Virus record (IMG/VR): IMGVR_UViG_3300023708_001015
Length of the DNA stretch: 64,000 nucleotides
Source of the DNA: a virus
Reading direction: 5' to 3' (one strand)
Positions 8,886 to 60,905 of the stretch are shown here, piece after piece. The notes under the pieces were generated by a model that saw only the letters and a list, made by a program, of their open reading frames with translations, was not told where the DNA came from and made no database searches. Made by a program: the position numbers and the translations under genes. Position 1 is the first letter of the stretch, and each line of letters starts with the position of its first letter.

Positions 8886-11800
8886 ACCTTCTTAGCTTTC
8901 GGTGGAATAGAATCCAACAGAACAAACCCAGATGGGATACCTTTAGAATCACGTTTGTATACAGCGTCGTTTACCATAGTGAATGCCATCTTACGGTTTC
9001 CTTGTGGTTTGTAACCAGTGTGGATCCAAACAGACTCTGGATAACGATACTCTAGAATCAATTGATCGTATGTGATCAACTTCTCTAGTTGCTGAACTAA
9101 CTGATATGTCTTATTGTAACGATCTGGTAACAACAATGCGATATCGAAACAATGACCCTTACAGTGATCAGAGAATGGAGACTCAGTTGGCACAACACCC
9201 TTTAGGCGATAACCAGAAGAAATCTTCCATTGTTTGTTGTATCCACCAATACCACCTGGAAGTGCTTCTAGGTATGGTTCGAGAATGTTCTGAGCAGACA
9301 TAGCTAAGTTACACACAATCTCTTGGACAGTGTAAATACGTTCAGCAGAGTTTGCAGATTCTTTAAGCATCTGGTCGACCAGTTTATGCTTACCATTAAC
9401 ACCACCATCCATACACATACCAAGAGTGAAGTTCTTAGAAAGGGTGTAGTCGTTCGTAAAGTTCTTAGTACCGTAGATAATCTTACAATCTACTGGAATC
9501 TGCTTGCCAGAACCGCCTGATGGTGTACCAGCTTCTTCAGAAGCAACTGGAGCAGGAGCACCTGGAATTCCAGCTTGTGTCTGAGCATTAGAAGCTGCGC
9601 GTCCTTCTGGAGTTGAGTAGTCCTCTGGAGTCTCATTAGCTGCAAGTTCTTCAGTCTGGCGCTCAGGTGGAATCAGATATGGCACAGAAGGGCTAACTGG
9701 AGAACCAGCTGGAGGTGGAGTAAGTTCAACAACTGTGGCACCGTCAGCACCGTTGCCGAATTGACCTTCAGCATAGTCGGCGTGCAATGTACCTCCAGCA
9801 AGAATACTCATATCTGCTGCGGATTCAGTATTTACTGTTTCACCTTTATGGCTAATAGAGTTTGCTTCTACAGCAAAAGACCCACCCGCTTTAACTAGAA
9901 TGTCTCCACCAGCAGCGATGTACATATCATTGGCAACACCAAGATCTACGTTATTGCCAACTCTGATGTTTGCGTTCTGAGAAACTTCAATATTGGCATC
10001 AGTTCTGGCAAACACGTTTAAGTTACCATCAACAGTAATGTTGCACTCTCCACCAACGTGGATGCATCCATTACGTTCCATCAAAGTGAACTTGTCGCCG
10101 ACAATGTAATTTGTTACAGAACCATTAGCATCAATCTCTTGGAATGTTCCTGCGCGATGGTATGTGTGAATACGTTCTTGGCCAGGAGTATCATCAAACT
10201 CTTGTACGTGACCAGACTCAGTCTCGAATACTTTATTATATGGATACTTTGCGCCAAATGGTGGAGCAGGTTGATCCCACGATCCACTATCAAGCGCCTT
10301 TGGAATTCCTTTAACTATGTTGGAGTCTTTCTTCTCAACGATAGTTCCATCTATGATACCACGTGCCAGACGGTTAGTGTCTGGTTCATTCAAATATTCT
10401 TGAAGTGGATATTTGTTGTTAGGGTCACGGAAACCAGTATTGTCTGTGCCACGTTTGATCGACTCAGCAGAAGGTCCAGGTGTTCCATTAAAATCTGCAG
10501 GAGGTGCTGCTGGTGGAGCACCAGCATCTTTATCTACAGAACCAGTCGATTGAGATCCATAGAAATATTCATAGTATGCAGTTTTCTTAGCAGTGATGTC
10601 TGGTGAGTTTACACCGACAGCTTTCTTAGCTGCATAAAAATATCCAGGGTGGTCTGTAGGTTTAGTGCCCTTTGCTACACGATCCTTAATATAGAGAGCA
10701 GCAACCAAAGCTGACACGTTAATATCAGAATCTAATGAATCTGGATTGTTAATCAAGTCGATGTTTATGCCTTCAGCTTGAGCAAGTTTCTGATATCGAG
10801 CATAGTTTGCGCGTCCAGTTAACTGAATGAAACCACGACCGTAATACTTACCACCATCTTCATCTGTTAAGTTTCCAAGGAAACCTTTACCACGTTTAGT
10901 TGGACCATATGCCCAAGAGAAGAACTGCTCACGTGTGATGCCTTTCTTAGAAGCATCAGAGTATCTTGCGATATCTTCATCAGTGGCAAATGAGTAGATC
11001 TGCTTCATACGAGAAGCTGAGTAGTTATATGATTCTAGCTGTGGAATCCAACGTGTTTCACCACCAGCGATACCCAATAATGCACACTTTTGTTCTTTAG
11101 TGGTTAGTCCAACTTTATCACAAGCAGCAATAAGTGCTTTGATACCTGCAGATGACTTAGAAGTATCTGGAGATTCTTTAGGTGGTGGAATAGTTGGAAT
11201 AGAAACGTTTGTGTCTGTTCTTGCTGGAGCACCAGCTTCAGGAGCAGCTACAACAGGAGTGCCATTACTTGTAGTTACAGGCAGTCCAGTTGCAGTTGTT
11301 AATACACCTTCTAGCTTGCTTTTGTTAACCGCATCAATGTTAGTTGCAGCTGGTTTAAAGGTAATGATGTTCTCACCATAACCTGTGACAATCTCGCTAA
11401 TTGTAATCTGAGTAGAATTATCTACAGTGACGATAAAACAGTTATCTGATAATCCAAACCCAACAACTTTCATATTAGCAGTTAAGCCAGTTGTTAGATC
11501 AGTTCTTCCTGTTTCTCTATCAATGAATGTTAGTTTGGTGCCGTTGGTTGGTCCATCTACTGTTCTAAGAACAATATCTTTTAGTTTTGTAGAACCTTCA
11601 ATAGCTGTTCCACTATCGTCGTCTTCAATAGCTTTAGGTGCTTGTGGAATGCCACCGATAGTACCGAACATAATTGGTTGTTGCTGAGCATCATCCATAA
11701 ATCCAATAATGACAGTAGTACCTTCAACTGGACCGATTGGGGTAGCACCAATACCGTTCATCGCAGCAGATGTAACTGATTGGACTGGCACAGACCATGG

Positions 11801-27277: not shown

Positions 27278-27673
27278 ATGCAATACTTTACTTACCTATG
27301 GTTCGATAAGAACCGAAAAATGTTCTATATTGGAATGCACGAAGGTTCCGATGAAGATGGTTATGTGTCTTCATCTAGATGGTTTAATGGCGAACAACAA
27401 TATAGACCAAATGATTTTACTCGTAAAATACTCAAAATGTTTGATAATAGAGCCTTAGCTAGAAAAGAAGAAGCTAGACTGTTAGCTATGATCAAAGATT
27501 CTGAATATGGTAAACGATACTACAATCTTAAAAATGGTCGAAAGAAGGGTACTCCAGCTTCCAACAAAGGTAAACCGATGTCAATGGAACAGCGAGAAAA
27601 ACTAAGGTTAGCTAAACTCGGTAAACCATCGGCACGTAAAGGTATACCGAATAAAATTAAAAGTGCTGACTGA
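27278..27673 (+). mobile_element. Free-standing Seg-like GIY-YIG homing endonuclease with NUMOD3-like tail
   Basis: YFTYLWFD...FYIGMH...YYNLK; NKGKPMSMEQREKL; opposite strand to neighbours; own CTAAATA (27250) and GGAG. Confidence 0.75.
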
Positions 27674-27980
27674 TTGGGTAATAAGGACAGTCAGCGAAAC
27701 CTCAGGTCAAGTCAGCTTACGCTGCAAGAGCCCAAACATTATCGTTTGCATTTACTTAGTTTGCTTGATTTACGGTCATCGCCTACCGTGCTGTCCACTT
27801 GTTTACTTGTTGCCCTGTCGAAACCATGGCATCCCCATCAAAAGTATACTAGCCGAACTCCCGAACGTCTTCAGGCTTTGTTTAACAGGTACACTCTGCA
27901 CTAATACACTTTTGGTGGAGATGGCGGGAGTCGAACCCGCGTCCAGAACACTTTTCTCTTTGCTTCATACAGCAATAACT
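27663..27980 (-). ncRNA. ssrA: Circularly permuted (two-piece) tmRNA
   Basis: Acceptor piece with T-arm and CATCTCCACCA ends at 27913; intervening hairpin 27912-27837; coding piece begins GGGGATG at 27836 (G3.U70 pair); tag ANDNVWALAA* at 27749-27717; outer ends approximate. Confidence 0.9.
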
Positions 27981-27983
27981 CTA

Positions 27984-28012
27984 ATTATACTCTACAATTT
28001 CTTGCAAGGCAA
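27984..28012 (-). promoter_or_regulatory. Sigma70-like promoter of the tmRNA
   Basis: TTGCCT-17-TATAAT. Confidence 0.75.
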
Positions 28013-28013
28013 A

Positions 28014-28688
28014 TCAGATATTGTATTTATTCTTATAGTCTAGTCGTAACTTACGGAATGGACCAATCCAGTTATCACGTTTCTCGATAAACCATCGTGG
28101 ATCGTCATTCTCAACTGCCATCAAAATTGCAAGACGACCAATAGGAATTCCAGTACGTTCTTCAAATGCAACAGCATAAGCTGCACATTGCATAAAGTAG
28201 TGGTAAATGTCTTCTCGATCTTTAGGCTTGCTTGCTGTCTTGAAGTCAATAACAGTCAGCTTACCTTGAAACTCAGCGATACAGTCAACCGTTCCAGCAA
28301 CCTGTAAGTGATCAGAGTACAGTGGAGTTTCTAAGCAGTGGATGTTATCAATCTGATCGAGTAAGAACTTGATAGAGTTGAACATCTCCAAGTCAAACAT
28401 ATCAGCTTCGAATACATTTCCACGAAGATAATCCTCACAATACTGGTGAATCCGAGTGCCACGTGCTGATGCTCGTCCAGAGATTCGATTAGCTTCTTCA
28501 GCACCAACTCTCTGTCGCCATTTGGCAATTCCTTCTGCAGTTGCTTGTCCTGTGATTGTTGTTACGCTTGGATACGAAAAACCCGATGGAGTCAGATATG
28601 TTCTTTTTCCATCGGGTCTTGTGTCACGTACTAGTTTCGCAAAATCATGATGTATAAAGTTTTTCATTAAGTCAGTAGGTGAATACAC
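28014..28688 (-). CDS. PD-(D/E)XK (Cas4/RecB-like) exonuclease
   Basis: PSVTTI...RGTRIH...E..L...AGTVD...IDFKT...Q..AYA. Confidence 0.85.
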   Translation of the reverse strand: MYSPTDLMKNFIHHDFAKLVRDTRPDGKRTYLTPSGFSYPSVTTITGQATAEGIAKWRQRVGAEEANRISGRASARGTRIHQYCEDYLRGNVFEADMFDLEMFNSIKFLLDQIDNIHCLETPLYSDHLQVAGTVDCIAEFQGKLTVIDFKTASKPKDREDIYHYFMQCAAYAVAFEERTGIPIGRLAILMAVENDDPRWFIEKRDNWIGPFRKLRLDYKNKYNI

Positions 28689-40862: not shown

Positions 40863-41024
40863 TCATTTGAACGACTTGATCCACTCTATTAGAACGATAT
40901 TGGCTTCTGCTCGAGTCAGATCGAATTGGGCTTCGAGATATGGACCAGCACCCCACATATTAGTTACTCCACTGTCTCTTAGAGCAATTAGGTATTCTTT
41001 GTGTTCTTCAGTTAGTTTCATCAT
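40863..41024 (-). CDS. Small hypothetical protein (53 aa; absent from the ORF track)
   Basis: Manual translation MMKLTEEHKEYLIALRDSGVTNMWGAGPYL...; ATGA-coupled to the paralog array. Confidence 0.65.
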   Translation of the reverse strand: MMKLTEEHKEYLIALRDSGVTNMWGAGPYLEAQFDLTRAEANIVLIEWIKSFK

Positions 41025-41227
41025 TCAACTCCGAAGTGTTCTTGAATATTATCTACAATCTGTTGATATGGTTCTGGCCGCAACAGTTTCTTACTGCCGT
41101 GGGTGGTATCAATCACATCAATACATTCTTTGATAACTAGGGCCGCATAGAGTTCTTTGCTAAAAATCAACTCGCCATTGTGTTCTACAAGACTTTTTAC
41201 AGCCAGACTTTCTAATAGTTTAGTCAT
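41021..41227 (-). CDS. HFGVE paralog family member A (divergent)
   Basis: YAALVIKECI...IQEHFGVE. Confidence 0.75.
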   Translation of the reverse strand: MTKLLESLAVKSLVEHNGELIFSKELYAALVIKECIDVIDTTHGSKKLLRPEPYQQIVDNIQEHFGVE

Positions 41228-41492
41228 TCTTTACTCCTAGTAATTCTTTGATTAGGGTCTTTTTATCTTCCGTGGTCATCCCAAATTCAAATCGTTCTCG
41301 TATATCACTAACACAATGTAGCCTGCCAGTATTGTAATCGCTGTTACCTACACGGCTTTTACAAACTTCAATACAATCGTCCACAATTCGTTCAGCCAAT
41401 GCTTCAATCAATGCCCACTGCTTGGTATTGTTTAGATATTCAACACTGATGCCAACTTCCGTTGCTAACTGTTTAATTCGTTCGTTCATCAT
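41220..41492 (-). CDS. HFGVE paralog family member B
   Basis: MNERIKQLA...LAERIVDDCI...IKELLGVK. Confidence 0.75.
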   Translation of the reverse strand: MMNERIKQLATEVGISVEYLNNTKQWALIEALAERIVDDCIEVCKSRVGNSDYNTGRLHCVSDIRERFEFGMTTEDKKTLIKELLGVKND

Positions 41493-41722
41493 TCAACTCC
41501 AAAGTGCTGTTTAATCTCATTCATACAATGAATGCCACCTTGTTCAAAAGTATCAACTGATTTAGGAACAGGATCACTAATAACTTGTTCACAACATCCG
41601 ATACATTCTCTCACAATCAACTCGGCGAACTCGACCAAATTCTTTTCTTCGCACCAATACATTGATTCTCTGCCATCATAGATGTTTGCCTGTAACAAGA
41701 GTTTTTTAATTCGTTCGTTCAT
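41489..41722 (-). CDS. HFGVE paralog family member C
   Basis: MNERIKKL...EFAELIVRECI...IKQHFGVE. Confidence 0.8.
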   Translation of the reverse strand: MNERIKKLLLQANIYDGRESMYWCEEKNLVEFAELIVRECIGCCEQVISDPVPKSVDTFEQGGIHCMNEIKQHFGVE

Positions 41723-41934
41723 TCTTCAACTCCGAAATGTTGTTTAATCCTGTCCTTGATAACTTGAGAAACATTGCCATTGATACCATCTTCACGAGTA
41801 TACCAAACCTGCTCCATACATTCCCTGACCATCAACTCGGCGAACTTTTTGTAATCAAATTCTTCGCTGGCGTGGTCAACATAAAACTTACGGGCCACGC
41901 ATTGTTCAGCAAGTTGTTGAATTCGTTTGTTCAT
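41719..41934 (-). CDS. HFGVE paralog family member D
   Basis: MNKRIQQLA...KFAELMVRECM...IKQHFGVEE. Confidence 0.8.
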   Translation of the reverse strand: MNKRIQQLAEQCVARKFYVDHASEEFDYKKFAELMVRECMEQVWYTREDGINGNVSQVIKDRIKQHFGVEE

Positions 41935-42215
41935 TCTTCAACTCCAAAGTGTTCTTTGATCGACTGAGCACAATCTCTTGGACCGCTGGACGAATCAGGT
42001 TCATTATCCCATCTCCAAGTATGGTGTCGATCTAGGCAAATACCGACACATTCCTTAATAAGTAACTCTGCGAACTTTTCTGGATCAAATGAACTGAATT
42101 CAAAATTACCATCACCGACATTCTTCTGATAAGCAGGAAAGTAGGTCAATTTCCCATCATACATACGAACAAGTCCACCAGATTGGTTGTAAAGTTCTTT
42201 GATTCGTGCGTTCAT
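41931..42215 (-). CDS. HFGVE paralog family member E
   Basis: MNARIKELY...KFAELLIKECV...IKEHFGVEE. Confidence 0.8.
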   Translation of the reverse strand: MNARIKELYNQSGGLVRMYDGKLTYFPAYQKNVGDGNFEFSSFDPEKFAELLIKECVGICLDRHHTWRWDNEPDSSSGPRDCAQSIKEHFGVEE

Positions 42216-42415
42216 TCTTTAACCCCGAAATGTTCTTTATACAAGTTGTGCAAGTTTTTACAAGTATTATGGCCCAATAATGTTGAGTTGATTTCCATAC
42301 ATTCCCAAACAATCAACTCGGCAAACTTTTCCAGCATCTTGCTCTGCGAATCATTCAAGAGTTCTACATCAATAATGCCAGTTTGCCCAGCAAGTTCTTT
42401 AATTCGTTCACTCAT
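42212..42415 (-). CDS. HFGVE paralog family member F
   Basis: MSERIKELA...KFAELIVWECM...YKEHFGVKE. Confidence 0.8.
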   Translation of the reverse strand: MSERIKELAGQTGIIDVELLNDSQSKMLEKFAELIVWECMEINSTLLGHNTCKNLHNLYKEHFGVKE

Positions 42416-42720
42416 TTTTCAACTCCAAAATGATTCGCAATAGCAGAACCACAATTCATAGCTCCACCCCAAACACCATTATACAACTGCTTACCGTCTT
42501 GAGTTAGGAAAGAACTGCTCTTTAGCTTATGTGCATCCTCAGCAACTTGACCACAGCAACCCATACACTCTTTGACAATCAACTCGGCGAACTTTTTGTT
42601 AAACCCTGCCAAGTCTTTCATAATGATATTAGTATTTTCCGATCTCTTATATCTTGGATTACGCTCCACGCTATCAGCAATAAATGCCTGCATAGCAAGT
42701 TCTTGAATTCGTTTGTTCAT
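42412..42720 (-). CDS. HFGVE paralog family member G
   Basis: MNKRIQELA...KFAELIVKECM...IANHFGVEK. Confidence 0.8.
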   Translation of the reverse strand: MNKRIQELAMQAFIADSVERNPRYKRSENTNIIMKDLAGFNKKFAELIVKECMGCCGQVAEDAHKLKSSSFLTQDGKQLYNGVWGGAMNCGSAIANHFGVEK

Positions 42721-42905
42721 ACTGGCTCCACTTGGATGTTACCCTTGACTACCTTTAATAGTGTAGCATACAACGGGTGAAACTTTTTCTTTCCCTCGAC
42801 TGCAGCTTCAACTGTGCGGAATGGACCAGCGTGGATGCCTTCTGCATTGGCGAGATAATATACTTGGTAGTTTGTCATGCTTTCTTCCTTAGTGCTTTCA
42901 TCCAT
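42717..42905 (-). CDS. Hypothetical protein
   Basis: ATGA-coupled to family member G. Confidence 0.5.
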   Translation of the reverse strand: MDESTKEESMTNYQVYYLANAEGIHAGPFRTVEAAVEGKKKFHPLYATLLKVVKGNIQVEPV

Positions 42906-43041
42906 CGAATCTCTGCGTTCAGGATCTGTATTGCTTCCTTCTGTCGTTGCTTGGTTCCTTCATAGGCTGGACCGAAGTCGATAGTTGGATCTGGCACTAG
43001 CTCTTGTAGCAGTTCTTTAATCTTTAGTGCATTCTCTAGAG

Positions 43042-43269
43042 TCATAGCTTCTTCAGTGATGGATAGTCGTTCTCTAGTTCTTGCAGGCGACTCTTTAGAT
43101 TGAGATATTCTTTTGATGCTTCGTTCTCTGCTTTCACTCGATCTTGGCGACGTTCTGCCTTAACCTTTAGAGTTGCCAGTTGTTCACTATCTGGTAGAGA
43201 TAGTACGACTAGATCGAGTGCAATCTCCACCTGCTTTAGACGGATGAATAATTCAGTTATTTGGTCCAT
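43042..43269 (-). CDS. Hypothetical coiled-coil protein
   Basis: Co-oriented ORF. Confidence 0.55.
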   Translation of the reverse strand: MDQITELFIRLKQVEIALDLVVLSLPDSEQLATLKVKAERRQDRVKAENEASKEYLNLKSRLQELENDYPSLKKL

Positions 43270-43477
43270 TTTTCTTCCTTAATAGAGAATATCGATATTC
43301 TCCCAGTTCCACGCATCGTTTTCTTAGTTGATATGCCAGTTGTCTCTCTTCGGGAGTCCAGTTCTTTTCAACTGTATTATGTAGAGAGACGAATGCCTGC
43401 TGGATCTGGCTTAGTTCTTCAGTTGTCTCTTCCCACGTCATCGTCGGTTCATCCATGCTAGTATGTTTGCAGGTCAT
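43253..43477 (-). CDS. Hypothetical protein
   Basis: ATGA-coupled to family member H. Confidence 0.55.
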   Translation of the reverse strand: MTCKHTSMDEPTMTWEETTEELSQIQQAFVSLHNTVEKNWTPEERQLAYQLRKRCVELGEYRYSLLRKKNGPNN

Positions 43478-43713
43478 TGGTCCACTCCAAAGTGTTGTTT
43501 AATCAATTCAACTGCACGACCACGAGAGACCATATCACGTAGCATAGGATTCAATGCCACACTACACTCTTGGATGATCAACTCGACGAACTTTTCAGGA
43601 TTGAACTTATTAGGTTGCTCCCATAAAATGTCTTTAGTTAGCGTTCCTGTTCCTCTAGTCGGAGGTTGTGGTTCATGCGCCTGTTGGTAAAGTTGTTGAA
43701 TTCGTTCGTTCAT
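43474..43713 (-). CDS. HFGVE paralog family member H
   Basis: MNERIQQLY...KFVELIIQECS...IKQHFGVDQ. Confidence 0.8.
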   Translation of the reverse strand: MNERIQQLYQQAHEPQPPTRGTGTLTKDILWEQPNKFNPEKFVELIIQECSVALNPMLRDMVSRGRAVELIKQHFGVDQ

Positions 43714-43825
43714 TTTGAAATCCTATATCCAACGCACCACAGATCGATTCGAGCGAACCAGTTACCCCGATTCTTACCGAAGCCGATACGTAGCATTCGA
43801 TCGTCCTTGTCCAGTAAAATTTTAG

Positions 43826-44017
43826 TTAGCATTCGTATTTCCTTACAATCTCATCAGCGCAGTGGTGTCCATCTAGACCAGCATCACCTGCATTTTCACA
43901 GATGATTAGAACGTCCGAGATAAGCAACTTGGCGAACTTCTTAGAATCGAACCATGGTGGACCATACGGTTTAGCTTCCCAGCACTGTGACTCAAGTTCT
44001 CGAAGTCGAGCATTCAT
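43826..44017 (-). CDS. HFGVE paralog family member I (divergent C-terminus)
   Basis: MNARLREL...KKFAKLLISDV. Confidence 0.7.
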   Translation of the reverse strand: MNARLRELESQCWEAKPYGPPWFDSKKFAKLLISDVLIICENAGDAGLDGHHCADEIVRKYEC

Positions 44018-44189
44018 TCTTCACCACCATGATAAATGTGTTCAGTGACTTCCCATTCCATACGATCAGAATAATGGACTCGTTCCTTCTCGATAAACTT
44101 ACCAGCTTTCTCGAGGGTTTCAAATAGGCCACAGTCGATTCGTTCAGAAGGACAATGTGGATCAATCATATCTACAGCGTATGCTACTT

Positions 44190-44396
44190 TCATTGTGTTA
44201 CTCCATTCATTGGTCGTGGACCAGTTTCCTCACCGATAATGACTGTACTTGATTGTTTGGCAGCAGCTTCCAGTTGAGCCAGAAAGTTTCGATTAGTCCG
44301 TTCTTCGTCCTTCATGGCACACTCAAAGCAGATGTATGCTCCATTATGTCCATATGGTCGGCAGTCTTCGTCTTGTTTACATTCAGTGCAAATCAT
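44190..44396 (-). CDS. Small Zn-finger-like hypothetical protein
   Basis: CTEC...CRPYG...ICFEC. Confidence 0.6.
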   Translation of the reverse strand: MICTECKQDEDCRPYGHNGAYICFECAMKDEERTNRNFLAQLEAAAKQSSTVIIGEETGPRPMNGVTQ

Positions 44397-44587
44397 CGTG
44401 GGTCCAGTGGCATCAGTGTACCGTTTTGCGTTATAAAATACTTACCAGACTTGCGGATCTCTTCCTGTCTGATATCAAACTTTGCTCGTTGGTAGCCTTC
44501 AGTGTAACCAGTGCAGTACATCCATCGTGTAACAGCCACTGATGCAATGAAGAGTAGTAGTACGTCTTGCCAAATCATTAGTAACAC
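44393..44587 (-). CDS. Small membrane-anchored hypothetical protein
   Basis: N-terminal TM segment; GYTEGYQRA. Confidence 0.5.
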   Translation of the reverse strand: MLLMIWQDVLLLFIASVAVTRWMYCTGYTEGYQRAKFDIRQEEIRKSGKYFITQNGTLMPLDPR

Positions 44588-44735
44588 TCCTCGACTGTGA
44601 CTGTGTGACCAAGATGTTCCAGTAGCTTCTTGATGCCTTCTGTTCCCATATCTTCGTCGTTATGATCCCAACGGAAACGCTTCCCATCTACTTCAACAGA
44701 CCAGCCATCGCAGTATTGTTCAATTGTAATATCTT

Positions 44736-44921
44736 TCATTCGTCAACTCCGAAATGTTCTTTGATAATGTTAGCCCAGAAGCCAGTGTCAGAATCATCCC
44801 TTGAATTTACAGCACTGGCACATTCTCGAACAATCAACTCGGCGAACTTTTTTGCAAATTCTGGATGATAGTCATAATTTTCAGATGCCTGTAGAGCAAG
44901 TTGTTCAATTCGTTCGTTCAT
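44736..44921 (-). CDS. HFGVE paralog family member J
   Basis: MNERIEQLA...KFAELIVRECA...IKEHFGVDE. Confidence 0.8.
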   Translation of the reverse strand: MNERIEQLALQASENYDYHPEFAKKFAELIVRECASAVNSRDDSDTGFWANIIKEHFGVDE

Positions 44922-45196
44922 TCTCTATACTCCGTAACGTAAGGTACAGTGACCCATTCCATCAGATGACCATCCCAGTATTGTAGATTAGTGGACGACT
45001 TGTTCTCCAGTCGTCGCTTGGCGTCCATGAGCGACAGATCATTGGCTCTGGCATATTCCTTCACCGTCTCAGCTGTGACTCTATTTTGGATAGTGAAATA
45101 TCGTAGTTTAACCATGGCGATAGATCTCATTAATTGTCTTGTTGGCAACCACTTCCACGTCAGCGAGGATACGCTTGAGTTCGTCAATGTTGACAT
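44918..45196 (-). CDS. Hypothetical protein
   Basis: ATGA-coupled; true start probably MVKLRYF. Confidence 0.5.
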   Translation of the reverse strand: MSTLTNSSVSSLTWKWLPTRQLMRSIAMVKLRYFTIQNRVTAETVKEYARANDLSLMDAKRRLENKSSTNLQYWDGHLMEWVTVPYVTEYRE

Positions 45197-45347
45197 CCAA
45201 CATCTTTACTACAATATACGCTACCATACGTTCGTGGGCATCTTCGGAGTTTAGCTTTTCTCGTTCCGAAACAAGAAACATCTCCTTGCCAGCGATCGTA
45301 TTCTCGAGGTTTGATTTAATTTTGAAGATATCCATGATTACTCGCAA
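45108..45347 (-). CDS. Hypothetical protein
   Basis: KSNLENTIAGKE...NIDELKRILADVE. Confidence 0.6.
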   Translation of the reverse strand: MRVIMDIFKIKSNLENTIAGKEMFLVSEREKLNSEDAHERMVAYIVVKMLDVNIDELKRILADVEVVANKTINEIYRHG

Positions 45348-45613
45348 CGGGTGTTAGTGAATGTACCGAAGACTGGACCAGTGTGTTCAACCTTCTTACA
45401 GGTAGCTGGCACTGACTTGTAGCCCATACATTGGGTTTGCTTCAGGGAGTTATTATACTGATAATGAGTACAAACTGATTTCTGACCTTCGAACGTATCC
45501 AAGACTTTATCGCTACCAAAACCTTGATCAATAGCACACACCACGAGCAGCAGAGGCATAGCGATAATGCAGCCAAGGATCAAGTGGGGGATGTAGTCAA
45601 GAGGGTTTCGCAT
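45338..45613 (-). CDS. Membrane/exported Cys-containing hypothetical protein
   Basis: N-terminal TM segment plus four Cys; first gene after the 45.6 kb promoter. Confidence 0.6.
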   Translation of the reverse strand: MRNPLDYIPHLILGCIIAMPLLLVVCAIDQGFGSDKVLDTFEGQKSVCTHYQYNNSLKQTQCMGYKSVPATCKKVEHTGPVFGTFTNTRCE

Positions 45614-45617
45614 TTCG

Positions 45618-45721
45618 TTCTTCCTTATCAGATGAATCTATTATACACCAATCCACGAGAAAGACAACAACTTTCTGCTAATAACCCTCAAATAAAAAGT
45701 AATACTTTCGGTTTACTTTTA
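45618..45721 (-). promoter_or_regulatory. Terminator-promoter cassette
   Basis: AAAAGTAA...TTACTTTT hairpin; TGAGGGTTATT half-site; TTGTCT-16-TATAAT (45667-45640). Confidence 0.7.
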
Positions 45722-46027
45722 GTCGTAGTAAGACCTACGTTGTGCTTGCTCTTCGTAGCCCTTACGACACTCGTCCCAGTCCTCTTTCTCGACTGCACCG
45801 ATAACGTCGCTCAGACCCTTGCCATCGTCGAATAGCTTCTGCCCGATAGCGTATGGATCGTAGTATTGCTTCCAAGCACGTTCAGCGCAGAACCGAGCAT
45901 CCTCGACTGGTTGGTGGTCGTATGGTTCGTTTGGATGACCTTCAGCGCAGTCACGTTCATAGTTCCCAGCCATGTAGCTAGCCAGAAACGTGCACACGTA
46001 GTGGTCTATGAATTGTTGCTTGGTCAC
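45719..46027 (-). CDS. Hypothetical protein
   Basis: ATGA-coupled ORF. Confidence 0.6.
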   Translation of the reverse strand: MTKQQFIDHYVCTFLASYMAGNYERDCAEGHPNEPYDHQPVEDARFCAERAWKQYYDPYAIGQKLFDDGKGLSDVIGAVEKEDWDECRKGYEEQAQRRSYYD

Positions 46028-46500
46028 TGGAATTGCTCCGATACGTTAATGCACTCCAATGGAATCAAGAACACTTCATGGCTTGAATAGACTCGACAGA
46101 ATCGTTCGTAGTCATAGCGATAGAATTCTTCCACTGGATAGCCCAGCAGCGTCTCAGTCAGCCATTCATAGACATAGAATCCATTGGTGTCATCTTCGTC
46201 TTCCTCATCTTTGATTGTATAGAAAGCATCGATCTGATCTTGGAGTTTCTGGTTTGGTTTGCATACTGTCAGAGCAGATGTAATAGCAGCAATCAACTCA
46301 TCACGAGTGGTTGCTCCATTACCAAGACCATTGCTACTATTGCGTGACTTAAATTGCTTGGCGAGAGCCACGAGGAATGTGACATCGTTGATGCCAAGAC
46401 CATTCAGGATCTTTGTCTGATATGCATCAGCATCGTTCTCCCAAGTGGTGACGTGCAACTGATAACCTGCAGGAATATTACTCATTATCTTCAACTCCAA
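46024..46500 (-). CDS. Hypothetical protein
   Basis: GYQLHVTTWENDADAY. Confidence 0.6.
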   Translation of the reverse strand: MELKIMSNIPAGYQLHVTTWENDADAYQTKILNGLGINDVTFLVALAKQFKSRNSSNGLGNGATTRDELIAAITSALTVCKPNQKLQDQIDAFYTIKDEEDEDDTNGFYVYEWLTETLLGYPVEEFYRYDYERFCRVYSSHEVFLIPLECINVSEQFQ

Positions 46501-46678
46501 AATATGCCTTTACGACTCGAGGCTTAATGTTACCGTGTCGGTTCTGTAATGTCAAAACTTCTTCACCAATCAGTCGTGCGAACTCAGCCAGCAGCAATTC
46601 TTGAGTGAAGTACGAGCCTTGTTTCTTGAATGGCTCATACGCTTTATCCATTAGACATTTGACTCTTTTGGGGTTCAT
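46478..46678 (-). CDS. HFGVE paralog family member K (divergent)
   Basis: MNPKRVKCL...EFARLIGEEV...VKAYFGVED. Confidence 0.65.
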   Translation of the reverse strand: MNPKRVKCLMDKAYEPFKKQGSYFTQELLLAEFARLIGEEVLTLQNRHGNIKPRVVKAYFGVEDNE

Positions 46679-46899
46679 ACGTCCAATCCAAACTTCTCTT
46701 GTAGATGGGCTTCGATCTCTTCGATAGGTACACAGTCGTCTGGTGGATACGAGTTACGCAGTCCACGGATAACCTCAAAGATCAAATTCTCAGCGAAACA
46801 GTGCATGTCATCCATAGAGAGCAGAGCAATGGGCACACCAGCGACTGCCTCTTCGAATACGATGTCAGACTCTCTCATCACTTCATTAACGATACTCAT
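46675..46899 (-). CDS. HFGVE paralog family member L (highly divergent)
   Basis: CFAENLIFEV...LQEKFGLD. Confidence 0.55.
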   Translation of the reverse strand: MSIVNEVMRESDIVFEEAVAGVPIALLSMDDMHCFAENLIFEVIRGLRNSYPPDDCVPIEEIEAHLQEKFGLDV

Positions 46900-46902
46900 T
46901 CT

Positions 46903-47133
46903 TCAACTCCGAAATGTTCTTGGATCAATATCCCAATGTTCAATAAGCATATCACAACTTTCGTCATATCCATTCTCAGCAAACATTTGGACACATTCTT
47001 TTACAATTAACTCAGCATGTTTACCACAGGCAGTTGCATAGTAGATGTCATTGTATCGTCGTTCAGCAGGAATTACACTGTTAGTATATTGGATAGCCTG
47101 TTTATACAGTTCTTGAATTCGTTCTACGTTCAT
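46903..47133 (-). CDS. HFGVE paralog family member M
   Basis: MNVERIQELY...KHAELIVKECV; out-of-frame IQEHFGVEE relic at its 3' end. Confidence 0.7.
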   Translation of the reverse strand: MNVERIQELYKQAIQYTNSVIPAERRYNDIYYATACGKHAELIVKECVQMFAENGYDESCDMLIEHWDIDPRTFRS

Positions 47134-52963: not shown

Positions 52964-53325
52964 TTTGTAACAAGAGCAACCAAGCCAACATAAGTCATTG
53001 CATGCAGGAATTGATCCATGCCAAGCAACCACCAGAACTGTTCATGAGTGTTTGGACCCCAACCCATCTTGGCATTGAGATTCATCTTAGCCCAGTCGAT
53101 GTTGTAATGAATCGCAGCATCCAAGAACGAGAGATAAACAGCAGCCTCTGGAGCATACCAAGCGAAACAACACCAAGTACCCATGCCATGGAATGCAGCA
53201 TGCAGGATTCCACCCACATGGCCATACGTACCTTTGTTACTCCACTGGAACTTAGTCTGCAGTGGAAAGTCCACTACAAAGTGTTTAGTGAATAACAGAG
53301 CAATGAGTATTAGTGTATCGTTCAT
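52960..53325 (-). CDS. DUF3307-family membrane protein
   Basis: KHFVVDFPLQ...K...HAAFH...HYNIDWAK...DQFLH. Confidence 0.85.
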   Translation of the reverse strand: MNDTLILIALLFTKHFVVDFPLQTKFQWSNKGTYGHVGGILHAAFHGMGTWCCFAWYAPEAAVYLSFLDAAIHYNIDWAKMNLNAKMGWGPNTHEQFWWLLGMDQFLHAMTYVGLVALVTK

Positions 53326-53816
53326 TTGTTTGCTGGAGTAAAGAGTGGATCTAACGGAGCAACATGCAGGTGATCAAAGACCAATTGGAACTTTGGTAGT
53401 GGCAGAGTAGCAGGATCGATATCCTGAGTGATATTGTATGCCAATGTCACATGTGGTTTGTACGAATCGTAGTCAGATGTAGCACCCATTGCACCAAGAG
53501 TATTATTCAACGCACGAGCCTCAGCAGACTCAACACGGAGCACCAAACACTTACCACCATCCTTAGTGTCGAACATTTCATAACCAACAGCATCAGCCTT
53601 CACTGAGTATTCACGAGAGAGTTTCTCTGCATCAGGCACTGGTGTGCGAGAGTAGATTACAGTGATGTGATACGAATTCTTAGTGACACGTTCATCAAGA
53701 CCAAGATTAGCCTCAACAAAGTGGTCCAACAGATCCATTGACGATTCACTCATTTCCAGAGCAACGTAAGTGCCATCCTTATGCTTGGCGTATTCTGATA
53801 ATGTGGCTAACTTCAT
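53322..53816 (-). CDS. 2H phosphodiesterase, Acb1 (T4 57B)-like anti-CBASS protein
   Basis: GTYVA...HITVIYS...DYDSYKPHVTLAY (two HxT motifs). Confidence 0.75.
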   Translation of the reverse strand: MKLATLSEYAKHKDGTYVALEMSESSMDLLDHFVEANLGLDERVTKNSYHITVIYSRTPVPDAEKLSREYSVKADAVGYEMFDTKDGGKCLVLRVESAEARALNNTLGAMGATSDYDSYKPHVTLAYNITQDIDPATLPLPKFQLVFDHLHVAPLDPLFTPANK

Positions 53817-56380: not shown

Positions 56381-57433
56381 TCATTTTTCACCAAGCAGAT
56401 ACTTGTTAGAGATAGCTTTCATGCTCATGCCACCATCGACTTGCTTGAATACAACACCTTCACGTTCAACATCTGCAAGAGTAGACTTACCTTCAGCAAA
56501 CGCCAGCATCTGTGGGATGTCGGTTAGACCAAGAGTATCGTACATGTCAGCAGAAGCTGCAAGAACAGGCGCATGCTTCAGACCCATCTGTTCGATCAGA
56601 CGACGACGAGCCTGTGGCAGCATGTATTCACCAGCTTGGATGTTGTATACATCGAACACACGGAACTCACATTCTTTCAGATTGTAGATGTTGCCTTGAA
56701 TTCCTGGTCCAATCAATTCACCTTGGATAGCGAAGTCCCAGTACTCATCAACAGCCATCATCTTTTCTTGGATACCTTCCTTGCGAGCAGTAGCCCAGAA
56801 AGAGTTACCTTCGGTTTCTTTCAGATCCATGTTACGAGAGCAGACACCAAATTCACCTTTGATCTGGTACACAGTCATTGAAGAGCCTTCCAGCTTCTCA
56901 GTCACCTCGAACTTCAGACCAGCTTCATTGGCAGCAACGATTTCTTTCTTCAGGTTCTGGCAACGCTCTTGATCAGTCTTTGGAATCAGAGATGGAAAGT
57001 TACCTTTACACACACCAGCAAGTTGGGCGTTCATTGGCTTTTCCCACTTCTTGATGCCAAGCAATTCAGTCAGGTCAGCACCTTCTTCAGCGCAAATTTC
57101 TCCAAAAATCTGACCACCAACATGATCATAGATTTCAGAAAGTGGCATCAGCAGACCTTGAGACAGTTGGCCACGCAGTTTGATAGTGCGCAGACGTTCA
57201 CCCTTGACACCTTCGAACTCACGTGGCTCTTTACCTTTAGACAGGAATGGAGCAAGTTCAGTCGGGATCCAAGAATCGATCTCAAAGTACACAGCAAAGT
57301 TACCGACATTGTAGAGACCCTTCTGAGCCACTACCTTCCAACCACCGATGACAGCACACTCAATGGCATCTGCACCTTCGATGGGGTTCAGTTCATCAAT
57401 ACGACGAATAGTAGCAAGTTTACGCATTTTCAA
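56381..57433 (-). CDS. RNA ligase (Rnl2/DRB0094 type)
   Basis: MRKLATIRRI..PIEGADAIE...TEKLEGSS (motif I)...QGELIG...EREGVVFK...KAISNKYL. Confidence 0.9.
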   Translation of the reverse strand: MKMRKLATIRRIDELNPIEGADAIECAVIGGWKVVAQKGLYNVGNFAVYFEIDSWIPTELAPFLSKGKEPREFEGVKGERLRTIKLRGQLSQGLLMPLSEIYDHVGGQIFGEICAEEGADLTELLGIKKWEKPMNAQLAGVCKGNFPSLIPKTDQERCQNLKKEIVAANEAGLKFEVTEKLEGSSMTVYQIKGEFGVCSRNMDLKETEGNSFWATARKEGIQEKMMAVDEYWDFAIQGELIGPGIQGNIYNLKECEFRVFDVYNIQAGEYMLPQARRRLIEQMGLKHAPVLAASADMYDTLGLTDIPQMLAFAEGKSTLADVEREGVVFKQVDGGMSMKAISNKYLLGEK

Positions 57434-58410: not shown

Positions 58411-58516
58411 TTTCCTAATCAACTGTAGTTATTATACAGTAACTATGCAAGATGTCAACAACTAAATGAAATAACCCCACACGAAGTGGGGTCATTAAAG
58501 TAATACCTAAGGTTTA
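58411..58516 (-). promoter_or_regulatory. Terminator-promoter cassette
   Basis: AAAAGTAAACC-TTA-GGTATTACTTT hairpin; AATGACCCCAC...GTGGGGTTATT hairpin; TTGACA-16-TATAAT (58458-58431); ACTACAGTTGATTAGGA leader. Confidence 0.75.
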
Positions 58517-59914
58517 CTTTTTAGCGTTGGCTCGAACCTCTGCGAAGTCGTATTCACGGATGATCTGACCATCACGGAACACGGTCTGCATAGCCTCTGT
58601 CCAGCCTCCGAAGCCTCGATCAGTCCAACCAGCAGGTGGTTTAACACCAGAGGCGAACTCACCTCCAGAATTGGTCCAGAGGGTCACTCGACCGCCTTTA
58701 GAACGCTTTCCAGAGTCGGTTACAGGGTCTTTTACAACGTCCTGCCACACGCCATTGATCTGGATAGACGAACACTTCATAGCGAATCGTTGTGTATCTC
58801 GGTTGACGATCTGGAGCAATGCACCACCCATACCGAACGCAATGTTATCAGCAGACCAACCCATTGCCATGAAGGCACCAAGGATGGAACGGATGGACAA
58901 TTCGTTCACACCGTCACCTTGGATCAAGCGAACATTGTTCAACACTTTGAATCCTTTGGCGTTGGTTGTGTAACCGAACTTCTGACCAAGAATCTCGATC
59001 AATTGACGGTTAACAGCAACAGGGTCACCAGAGTCAGGACGAATCACAACAGTGGCACCAGAAGCAATCACTTCGTCACGCAGTTCTTCACCCCACAGTT
59101 TTGATGCAGCATTGAACACGTCATAGCTATCAGACACAACAGCGAGGATGGAACCTTCACGACCGAATTGCTTCAGCATGTTACGGTATGCATCTACTTC
59201 ACCATCACGACCCCAAGATGTTACAGTGCTGTGCTCAGCTGCAGGAATTGAGAACCCTGCGATACCAGCGTTATAATACTCACGAGCATAGAGCAAACCA
59301 GTAATAGTATCAGTGCCCATGAAGTTGACCAAGTGAGCCGCACCCCCAATTCCAGCAGACTCAAGGCTAGATACACCACGAGCACCAAAATCGTGCAACT
59401 TAAAATCAATGAGAGCAGGGTCACCAGTTTTCTCCAAGTATTCAGCAATCACTTGCTTGATAGTATAAGACTGGGTTGCCACAGTTGTACCATACCATAC
59501 GGCACGGAGCAATGCAGTTTCCAGATAAGTTGTCAGCCAGAAACATTCTGGGTCTGTGTTTTCGACAGTCGCCAGTACATTCGAGACAGGCACCACAGTA
59601 CCTTCAGGTACAGCACGAATGACCAGAGGCAAGTAGCCTTTGTGCGTATCAAGGATGTATTGCCACCCCTCACGATTAAATGGCTCGCCGTGGGCTGTAA
59701 GAATCTCATCTGCAACATCAATGTCGGCTTGTGTGATGGGGTCAAGTAAATACTCCTTAATGAACGCTTGAAGACCGAACATCAGTGTGCGATCGTATTG
59801 ACCACCACGAGATTCGATATAAGAATAAACGCCAGTTGTACCAGCAGGATATTGTTTGAACATGCTAACTTTGTAGCTGTCTGTGTTCAAGAGGATGTTT
59901 TTTGCGAGTTTCAT
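58514..59914 (-). CDS. nadV: Nicotinamide phosphoribosyltransferase (NAMPT)
   Basis: LNTDSYKVS...KLHDFGARG...SIPAAEHS...VVSDSYD...VIRPDSGDP...IQGDG...FGMGGALLQ. Confidence 0.93.
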   Translation of the reverse strand: MKLAKNILLNTDSYKVSMFKQYPAGTTGVYSYIESRGGQYDRTLMFGLQAFIKEYLLDPITQADIDVADEILTAHGEPFNREGWQYILDTHKGYLPLVIRAVPEGTVVPVSNVLATVENTDPECFWLTTYLETALLRAVWYGTTVATQSYTIKQVIAEYLEKTGDPALIDFKLHDFGARGVSSLESAGIGGAAHLVNFMGTDTITGLLYAREYYNAGIAGFSIPAAEHSTVTSWGRDGEVDAYRNMLKQFGREGSILAVVSDSYDVFNAASKLWGEELRDEVIASGATVVIRPDSGDPVAVNRQLIEILGQKFGYTTNAKGFKVLNNVRLIQGDGVNELSIRSILGAFMAMGWSADNIAFGMGGALLQIVNRDTQRFAMKCSSIQINGVWQDVVKDPVTDSGKRSKGGRVTLWTNSGGEFASGVKPPAGWTDRGFGGWTEAMQTVFRDGQIIREYDFAEVRANAKK

Positions 59915-59930
59915 GATTAGCTCCTAATCT

Positions 59931-60905
59931 TTACAGTTTTGAAAATGCTGGCATTGGAACAACACCAGTTACTTTTGACAAGATGTCTTTGTGGTCGTCA
60001 TACATCTGAATTGTATTCAGTGCATCAGTGAGTGGCACCCACTTACACAAAGCAGCATCGTCGGCACCATTGGCACGTGGCAACGAGAAATCAGGATTTG
60101 GATTGATTCTCATATACACAGCCATAGTGTTTCGGGGAATACCGAATGAACGACTTGGATCATCGAACAATTCAGTCTTCACGATAGAGCCACGGAGAAC
60201 TTTCTCTGGAACTCTAACATTGGTTTCTTCGATCAATTCACGAATGGCACAATCGAGGAATGTCTCACGTTGATTACGAAAACCACCTGGAAGAGCCCAT
60301 GCTCCAGCACCTGGTGCGAACTTGCGTTGGATAAGCAACACATGTCCTTGGCATTCCAGAATCGCATCAGAGCAGTTGAAGTTCAAAGTCTCTGGGAATG
60401 GATAGTTGGCGAAAGTTGTTTTCTCTTTTTGGTAGAATGCGTAGTCAGCTTGAACAGTTGCAGGCATGTCTGGATCTTTCAGATCGAACATACGCTGGCG
60501 AACCATCGTAGCGTTCACGTTGTACTGTGACTCAATACTCTTGAATGGCCAGTCAGGGAACCATGTCAGATAGTTGTTACCTTCTTTCATGTGACCGAAC
60601 AGAGTTGGAACGCCCATGTCATAGTGTTCAACAGTGGCACGAACGTCCGACATCCATTGTGAGTCAGAGTAGCGATAGTCGTTTAGTGGGAGAATCTCAT
60701 AATTCGAGATGTTGACATTACGCAGTTTGCTACGTAACATTGATACACGCTCTTGGAATGTCCAAGGGTTTTTGATTGATCGACATTGATTCGCAGAACC
60801 AACGAGGATGTAGAGTTTATCTACTTGAGAAGCGGCAATGCCCAGTGCGTGGACATGACCAGTGTGAACGGGTTGAAAACGTCCGATAAAAATTCCATTT
60901 TTCAT
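59931..60905 (-). CDS. natV: Bifunctional NMN adenylyltransferase / Nudix ADP-ribose pyrophosphatase (NadM-Nudix, NatV-like)
   Basis: GRFQPVHTGH (HxGH); WALPGGF...E...CAIRELIEET (Nudix box); GADDA. Confidence 0.9.
   Translation of the reverse strand: MKNGIFIGRFQPVHTGHVHALGIAASQVDKLYILVGSANQCRSIKNPWTFQERVSMLRSKLRNVNISNYEILPLNDYRYSDSQWMSDVRATVEHYDMGVPTLFGHMKEGNNYLTWFPDWPFKSIESQYNVNATMVRQRMFDLKDPDMPATVQADYAFYQKEKTTFANYPFPETLNFNCSDAILECQGHVLLIQRKFAPGAGAWALPGGFRNQRETFLDCAIRELIEETNVRVPEKVLRGSIVKTELFDDPSRSFGIPRNTMAVYMRINPNPDFSLPRANGADDAALCKWVPLTDALNTIQMYDDHKDILSKVTGVVPMPAFSKL

Follow-up and report, generated by a model that had tools for sequence, protein, structure and literature searches.

Small phage proteins with two variable cassettes that appear to be exchanged at conserved blocks of coding DNA

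The closest known mechanisms to the one described here are the conserved motifs of the gp38 adhesin and the shuffling of promoter-early stem-loop (PeSL) cassettes, both found in T4-type phages. Our subject is a family of small proteins encoded between positions 41021 and 47133 of a 64,000-nucleotide stretch of viral DNA (IMG/VR record IMGVR_UViG_3300023708_001015), which we refer to in its full length as the window. Each protein carries three conserved motifs that enclose two variable regions, region 1 and region 2, and these regions appear to be exchanged between genes as cassettes by recombination at the short blocks of DNA that encode the motifs (blocks 1 to 3). The gp38 tail-fibre adhesin of T2/T6-type phages is reported to have hypervariable segments between conserved glycine-rich motifs (Trojet et al. 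2011, PMC3157838). The likeness to our family is that conserved motifs in T4-type phages form a structural core between exchangeable variable segments, so that specificity is easily swapped (PMC3157838). However, the two are not related in sequence or fold, and gp38 is a single-copy virion adhesin, whereas the window family consists of multi-copy, cytoplasmic-type helical proteins of 60-100 amino acids (aa) encoded in an accessory region. It has two cassettes, with about 245 types of each in our sample, and its blocks double as the ribosome-binding site of the neighboring gene.

PeSL cassettes bring about modular shuffling in the hyperplastic regions of T4-like phages (Arbiol 2010, PMC2839356; Comeau 2014, PMC4122927). 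As in our family, short repeated DNA elements lie among small accessory genes, and homologous recombination between them swaps unrelated sequences. PeSLs, however, are intergenic promoter/terminator elements that move whole open reading frames (ORFs), whereas the blocks of the window family are coding sequence, with block 2 internal to the gene, and exchange yields chimeric proteins. The genes described here overlap by ATGA with no intergenic space, and we found no promoter or stem-loop at their junctions. What is new relative to both systems is the use of coding crossover blocks, two of which also form a coupling signal, the chimeric products, and a very large pool of modules shared by uncultured freshwater phages. 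A precedent for a repertoire of this kind, with several proteins per genome, a short conserved segment and a defence target for each, is provided by the T-even internal proteins Ip1-3 and their relatives, diverse small proteins that each block a different GmrSD variant (PMC3012670, PMC12373910). These are not homologous to our family, and they share only an N-terminal capsid-targeting leader, whereas the window family has three motifs that form part of its fold.

A sequence-only reading of the window had described 13 ORFs of 61-102 aa, located at 41021-47133, that share the three motifs, and our analysis confirms their coordinates, sizes and alignment and places all of them on the minus strand. 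Membership in one family was assessed with two profiles. A hidden Markov model (HMM) made from the alignment of the window members matched exactly these 13 of the 1,067 six-frame ORFs of the window, and the next best match, with E=0.023, was an out-of-frame remnant of block 3 (frame 46899-47000). A fairer test used an HMM built from non-window homologs only, with reversed and shuffled sequences as controls. This model matched 11 members at E<=1e-11, the ORF at 46478-46678 at E=2e-4 and the ORF at 46675-46899 at E=0.38, which is within the range of the controls. By sequence comparison, then, membership is solid for 11 ORFs, probable for 46478-46678 and doubtful for 46675-46899, so that the proposed family of 13 stands for the first group, holds weakly for the next ORF and is not upheld for the last. 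The genes are listed here with their E values against the non-window HMM.

41021-41227, minus strand: member 1, 68 aa, weak N-terminal motif, ATGA-coupled to the downstream gene (E=8.9e-12)
41220-41492, minus strand: member 2, 90 aa, with a C-terminal extension module (E=1.1e-20)
41489-41722, minus strand: member 3, 77 aa, with the commonest region-2 cassette type (E=2.5e-24)
41719-41934, minus strand: member 4, 71 aa (E=3.3e-23)
41931-42215, minus strand: member 5, 94 aa (E=1.8e-22)
42212-42415, minus strand: member 6, 67 aa (E=4.5e-16)
42412-42720, minus strand: member 7, 102 aa, first gene of the seven-gene run (E=1.8e-20)
43474-43713, minus strand: member 8, 79 aa (E=4.3e-19)
43826-44017, minus strand: member 9, 63 aa, without C45 and the HFGV ending (E=2.8e-13)
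44736-44921, minus strand: member 10, 61 aa (E=3.5e-18)
46478-46678, minus strand: member 11, probable and divergent, 66 aa (E=2.2e-4, 17.4 bits)
46675-46899, minus strand: member 12, doubtful, 74 aa (E=0.38, no better than controls)
46899-46940, minus strand: out-of-frame copy of block 3, reading ..QEHFGVEE* in another frame and keeping GGAG and ATGA for the next gene
46903-47133, minus strand: member 13, 76 aa, divergent in-frame ending (E=2.9e-12)

The seven genes at 41021-42720 are consecutive and coupled by 4-nucleotide (nt) ATGA overlaps of stop and start, as had been claimed, with one exception of 8 nt at 41220/41227. All that speaks for member 12 is its motif-3-like end and where it lies in the array; the canonical block-3 remnant serves its start. 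The variable regions had been called mutually dissimilar, and this is borne out: all region-1 and region-2 types are distinct among the window members.

The evidence that these regions are discrete cassettes comes from comparison with other phages. We collected loci (given here L numbers; database proteins have P numbers) with one peptide pattern and one query, and 84 loci hold 341 members, always on one strand; the median number per <=20 kb is 3 and the highest is 17. Conservation computed across 354 members is bimodal, at 80-95% in the motifs and 10-25% elsewhere. Region 1 spans 11-28 aa and region 2 13-37 aa (5th-95th percentile), and single-linkage clustering of the 354 members gives approximately 246 region-1 types and 243 region-2 types. 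Cassettes of the same type in different phages are 85-100% identical, and they are found in different company from one gene to the next. The commonest region-2 type, that of member 3, was seen in 16 loci, where it is combined with 15 different region-1 types, and that of member 8 in 6 loci, combined with 6. Member 2 and a gene in L008 have 100% identical region 1 sequences but unrelated region 2 sequences; region 1 of member 6 is 94% identical to that of a gene in L006, the region 2 of which is of the member-3 type. Likewise, the 33-aa region 1 of member 5 is 97% identical to that of an L049 gene (88% at the nucleotide level over 192 bp) with an unrelated region 2. Conversely, region 2 of member 4 is 91-96% identical to those of genes in L005 (96%) and L023 with unrelated region 1 sequences. 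The region-1 type of member 9 recurs in L035, L011 and P0006/P0010/P0016/P0045, each time with a different region 2.

These examples are representative of the sample. Among 183 pairs of members with region 1 at least 60% identical, region 2 is less than 30% identical in 146, and both regions are shared in only 32. Among 221 pairs that share region 2, region 1 is unrelated in 186. We obtained the same result with 252 database proteins that are independent of the loci, in which 3,886 of 4,067 region-2-sharing pairs have unrelated region 1 sequences. Across loci, same-type cassettes are separated by synonymous divergence (dS) of 0.7-1.0, and the ratio of nonsynonymous to synonymous divergence (dN/dS) is 0.10 for region 1 and 0.155 for region 2, indicating that each cassette is an old, selected protein module. 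Thus, the sequence-only reading was right that this is a diversified multi-copy repertoire, and the diversity arises through reassortment at conserved DNA blocks. Its description of the regions as hypervariable, in the sense of mutation, does not hold, given discrete types that are 85-100% identical across phages. The regions are conserved across phages, as the low dN/dS values show, and the cassettes assort independently. The regions were also considered as targets of a diversity-generating retroelement, which would have a fixed length and differ from a template repeat at adenines, a candidate that we rejected because the cassettes differ in length, their types are unalignable and dN/dS within types is about 0.1; a reverse transcriptase was not searched for.

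An optional third module is a C-terminal extension of about 19 aa (..TEDKKTLIKELLGVKND), present in member 2 at 41220-41290 on the minus strand, in genes of L006 and L008 (near 10230-10290) and in P0003. It has an ATG of its own after the motif-3 block at its start and a second GGAG and ATGA at its end, and from its sequence it looks like a tiny downstream ORF that was fused in frame.

Individual genes show where the exchanges took place. A three-way DNA alignment shows that the L008 gene matches member 2 as far as motif 2, switches to member 3 until motif 3, and returns to member 2 in the extension. The L006 gene is likewise a mosaic at the DNA level, with the front of member 6 and a member-3-type back. 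In L001, a single locus holds a chimera and both of its counterparts: the gene at 7231-7449 is identical to 6404-6643 up to block 2 and to 9998-10237 from block 2 on, and the crossover falls within approximately 24 nt that are common to all three genes. A similar triad is present in L059 and L056. None of 969 within-genome pairs shares both cassettes, indicating that there are no plain tandem duplicates. The crossovers of the mosaics lie inside the three blocks, which are approximately 20-25 nt each. When 1.22 Mb of sequence was scanned, each 20-23-nt block was found within 2 mismatches in 205-228 of about 340 members, with no occurrence on the opposite strand; for background, the core genes shared by these phages are only 66-76% identical in DNA. 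Reassortment of cassettes by recombination at the conserved blocks is, on this evidence, very probably the mechanism by which the family evolves.

The blocks are conserved beyond what their protein sequences would call for. Arg7 is encoded by CGA in 88% of cases (background 13%), Gly74 by GGA in 94% (22%), Val75 by GTT in 91% (37%), Glu39 by GAG in 84% (25%) and Leu40 by TTG in 81%. Where two members have the same residue, the codons are identical at a frequency of 0.66-0.78 in the blocks, compared with 0.40-0.46 expected from usage and 0.45 in variable columns. Local gene conversion was ruled out as the cause, as codon sharing in the blocks is 0.66-0.76 within loci and 0.67-0.78 between them. 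For the internal block 2, a conserved mRNA structure was ruled out by partition-function folding of 347 members, in which its pairing was 0.08 with block 1 and 0.04 with block 3; most of its predicted pairing is with the variable sequence next to it.

Blocks 3 and 1 have an additional role at the junctions between genes. The HFGVE codons of block 3 contain GGAG approximately 8 nt upstream of the next ATG, and the stop codon overlaps that start. ATGA overlaps are present in 75% of members, and a Shine-Dalgarno-like sequence lies in the last 22 nt of 85%. Block 3 and block 1 jointly provide the next gene with its ribosome-binding site, its ATGA overlap and its first codons, from which we conclude that the arrays are translationally coupled. 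Member 13 is instructive here: its in-frame ending is divergent, but behind it lies a canonical block 3 in a different frame, which continues to provide GGAG and ATGA for the next gene. We also found eleven orphan copies of block 3 (..TTYGGAGTTGAAGAATGA) at the ends of ORFs that are unmatched by the family HMM, at L021, L023, L024, L031, L042, L046, L048, L055, L065 and L074; these are either degenerate members or sites where block 3 has been taken over as a ribosome-binding site. Although the internal block 2 plays no part in initiating translation, its codons are as conserved as those of the other blocks. Its conservation is best read as direct or second-order selection on recombination homology.

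We used AlphaFold2 (AF2) to model member 3, with an alignment of 148 sequences, and member 7. The member 3 model has a mean predicted local distance difference test score (pLDDT) of 85.8 and a predicted template-modeling score of 0.73, with helices at residues 3-11, 26-49 and 57-74; the member 7 model has a pLDDT of 87.0, with helices at 3-16, 37-67 and 74-98. Both models have the same topology, in which a short N-terminal helix, itself confidently modeled (pLDDT approximately 91), is clamped on a long helical hairpin. The shared small helical scaffold that had been proposed is thus supported by two models of the same three-helix topology. Motif 1 is helix 1, motif 2 starts helix 2 and motif 3 ends helix 3, and in the models the three motifs would converge at the base of the hairpin. 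Of the two loops that had been proposed on this scaffold, region 1 qualifies, being a low-confidence linker between helix 1 and helix 2 (pLDDT 61-77). Region 2 does not, as it is the distal half of the helix 2-helix 3 hairpin; the 41 residues of region 2 in member 7 form longer helices with a pLDDT of 94-97, and in the longer members this region simply lengthens the hairpin. The two regions appear in these models to lie at opposite ends of a rod.

The family is acidic, with a median isoelectric point (pI) of 4.9 and a median net charge of -5.4. Cys45 is conserved in 90% of members and His72 in 81%, and Cys49 and Cys65 occur together in about a fifth. A twin CX3C hairpin of the small Tim/CHCH-like kind was ruled out: there was a single sub-threshold match to zf-Tim10_DDP (E=0.062), C49 and C65 are each present in about one quarter of members, and the position of the would-be partner of C45 is Ile69. 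A helix-turn-helix DNA binder was ruled out as well, given the pI and charge of the family and a match of one member to HTH_22 of 19.4 bits, which is below the 29.6 cutoff. Four database proteins of 154-163 aa (P0022, P0157, P0167 and P0262) contain two family units in tandem, and we take these to be neighboring genes that have been fused or read through.

The family is large and is not a peculiarity of the window phage. A word-seeded search of clusters at 90% identity places at least 7,964 in the family (7,964 of 8,000 scored candidates matched). When 1.84 billion representatives were searched exhaustively with HMMER, 7,461 clusters at 50% identity matched at E<=0.001, and 524 of them at E<=1e-10. 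The family is thus a large one in metagenomes, and all of its database clusters are unnamed. The contigs that carry family arrays range from about 90 kb to 355 kb and belong to uncultured freshwater phages. Among 50,697 genomes of cultured phages, neither megablast of the region nor tblastn of four members and homologs gave any match, even at E<=10. Among cellular genomes (185,579 prokaryote species), only 17 loci were found, all on contigs of freshwater-lake metagenome-assembled genomes (MAGs) and none in an isolate. The MAGs were assigned to Actinomycetota, Bacteroidota, Verrucomicrobiota, Burkholderiales and Bacillota; one example is L103 (NZ_JBBAKG010000001.1), a 183-kb contig binned to a Haliscomenobacter MAG that carries family members. 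These phyla are unrelated, and the simplest reading is that the loci are probably on phage contigs mis-binned into bacterial genomes.

The proteins had been described as belonging to no recognized family, and searches of Pfam, PHROGs, NCBIfam, PADLOC, the Protein Data Bank (PDB) and Foldseek agree. No member has a Pfam match above the gathering threshold or a PHROGs match at E<=0.01, and NCBIfam and PADLOC gave nothing above threshold, with scattered single-member matches only (E>0.002). The best match of the family profile to PDB sequences is a Pumilio repeat over 30 residues (E=0.0015), which is not meaningful. Foldseek against BFVD returned only uncharacterised proteins of "uncultured Caudovirales phage" from the same family. 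The structural neighbors found in the ESM Atlas are clusters of the family, with template-modeling scores of 0.75-0.91 and 100% viral composition, and a search of the ESM Atlas limited to named clusters gave no usable match.

Several other explanations of these observations have to be weighed. The family could be an ordinary fast-diverging one, in which the motifs are the hydrophobic core and the rest is weakly constrained filler with no special mechanism. Small phage proteins often diverge beyond recognition, and the conserved residues do lie on the three predicted helices. However, identical-type cassettes recur at 85-100% in different phages with dN/dS of 0.10-0.15, the histories of region 1 and region 2 are discordant, exact chimeras exist, and synonymous sites in the motifs are conserved well beyond codon bias; this explanation is largely refuted, and we consider it very improbable. 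The mosaics could instead be metagenome assembly chimeras formed at the repeated blocks, a concern raised by the facts that all related sequences are metagenomic and that the blocks are repeated many times per genome. We give this next to no credence: reads, and the k=141 given in several contig identifiers, are longer than the blocks of approximately 20-25 nt, the window array was recovered at 99.95-100% identity from independent samples and assemblers, and the same cassette combinations occur in different samples (L001/L002 and L056/L059). Moreover, same-type cassettes differ between loci at dS of 0.7-1.0, which indicates that the combinations are old and inherited.

Two further explanations concern what the proteins do. 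One is that they are virion-packaged internal proteins of the T-even Ip kind, with termini that serve as capsid-targeting or processing signals and a body that is an injected anti-restriction effector. The window phage is T4-like, and [LI]xE, which we take to be the kind of site cut by the T4 prohead protease, occurs within the first 12 residues of 65% of members (230/354). The tripeptide is absent in the other 35%, though, and its Glu is only 55% conserved. The T-even Ips are diverse, share only an N-terminal targeting sequence and each block a different GmrSD (PMC3012670, PMC12373910), whereas our family has conserved internal and C-terminal motifs that Ips do not have, its N-terminal helix is part of the confident fold and not a detachable leader, and it has no sequence match to any cultured T-even phage. 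We judge this explanation quite unlikely. The other is that the blocks are mainly expression signals of semi-selfish recombining cassettes, and that the proteins are interchangeable, oligomerising structural or regulatory subunits rather than target-specific binders. Block 3 acts as a ribosome-binding site even out of frame, its eleven orphan copies precede non-family genes, and ATGA overlaps are frequent, all of which favor such a role; so do the conservation of Cys45 and His72 in so tiny a protein, where they could form an inter-subunit metal site, and the lack of a fixed partner gene. Yet block 2 is equally codon-conserved with no role in initiation, there is no conserved mRNA pairing between the blocks, and strong purifying selection on hundreds of cassettes argues for a function of each. 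This explanation deserves some weight, but we consider it unlikely.

We favor instead, with somewhat better than even confidence in the whole, a modular three-helix family whose cassettes are recombined at the three blocks and which provides a repertoire for host takeover or counter-defence. The models and sequence comparisons show that the motifs make up helix 1 and the hairpin base, and that region 1 and region 2 are separate cassettes, each drawn from hundreds of types. Homologous recombination within and between phage genomes very probably reassorts the cassettes, with crossovers in the three blocks. The conserved base would give the fold and perhaps an interface for a common partner or oligomer, and the two cassettes, at opposite ends of the rod, may be independent specificity modules. 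Each copy in the repertoire would then have a different target. The modular host-directed or counter-defence role is the most likely reading of function, although by itself it falls a little short of an even chance. It is suggested by the genomic context, by the many copies per genome with different cassettes, by the strong selection on each cassette, by their free reassortment, which suggests that they work independently, and by their apparent placement at opposite ends of the rod.

Certain observations weigh against this account or limit it. Foldseek comparisons with PDB and AFDB clusters gave only E>1, with no informative fold match, and no homolog of known function was found in the databases searched. 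The opposite-end placement of the cassettes is read from model topology rather than from measured coordinates. Because the loci were found by one pattern and one query, the sample has too many of the commonest cassette types. Within the blocks, some synonymous positions are free (Val42, Phe37/73 and Gln14), so that site-specific selection fits better than simple homogenisation, and codons are shared no more often within a genome than between genomes, with no genome-specific homogenisation. As for the early expression supposed in the sequence-only reading, sigma-70-like promoters are not enriched (24 compared with 22.5 expected); promoter-like and terminator-like sites near the genes are likewise at chance level.

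The source of the window is a divergent T4-like myovirus, with baseplate genes gp5, gp6 and gp7 and tail genes at 1-13 kb, a GC content of approximately 41%, and only 31-35% amino-acid identity to its best cultured relatives. The same phage was recovered again at 99.95-100% identity, both in a 173-kb contig and in fragments that come from several samples. All contigs with member 5 were identical to the window at this level, with no indels. The array sits within a long same-strand stretch of small unannotated genes, which also includes a metallophosphoesterase gene and the Acb1, RNA ligase, NAMPT and NMNAT/Nudix genes listed below. Other features of the window are as follows.

27658-28026, minus strand: transfer-messenger RNA (tmRNA), Rfam beta_tmRNA 117.6 bits, permuted-tmRNA model 146 bits, ARAGORN tag ANDNVWALAA
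44190-44396, minus strand: 68-aa Cys-rich ORF inside the array region, CxxC...CxxC, zinc-ribbon-like, without family assignment
53322-53816, minus strand: homolog of Acb1 (anti-CBASS), PF23474, E=2.1e-26, 92.8 bits, approximately 6 kb from the array
56381-57433, same strand as the array: RNA ligase with a PHA02142 OB domain
58514-60905, minus strand: NAMPT and an adjacent NMNAT/Nudix gene, an NAD+ salvage pair, phrog_448 E=4e-162 and phrog_395

The tmRNA is of a betaproteobacterial type, which hints at a Burkholderiales-like host. The nearby Acb1 and NAD+ salvage genes may provide a context for counter-defence, and in L001 Tad3 and Acb3 adjoin the family array. We found no obligate partner gene among 83 loci: the commonest neighbor clusters, an RNase H-like exonuclease, a MazG-like protein and a DSP phosphatase, each occur in at most 13 of the 83.

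Numbering more than 7,000 clusters at 50% identity, this is one of the larger unannotated phage protein families, and it lacks relatives in Pfam, in PHROGs and by structure as well as any cultured representative. It is also an unusually clean case of intragenic modular evolution, with hundreds of conserved cassettes, three codon-frozen blocks and exact chimeras in single genomes. Should the cassettes prove to be specificity modules, the family would amount to a natural collection of small binders and could serve as a tractable model for repertoire diversification in lytic phages without hypermutation. More tentatively, and we regard this as rather doubtful, freshwater T4-like and jumbo phages might share a combinatorial library of two-module inhibitors or adaptors, with codon-frozen recombination sites that keep generating new pairings. 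If true, it would be a recombination-based repertoire for counter-defence or takeover with a logic like that of antigenic-variation cassette systems. Finally, protein motifs can be held in part by roles at the DNA or RNA level, such as a ribosome-binding site or recombination homology, and this bears on how conserved motifs are interpreted.

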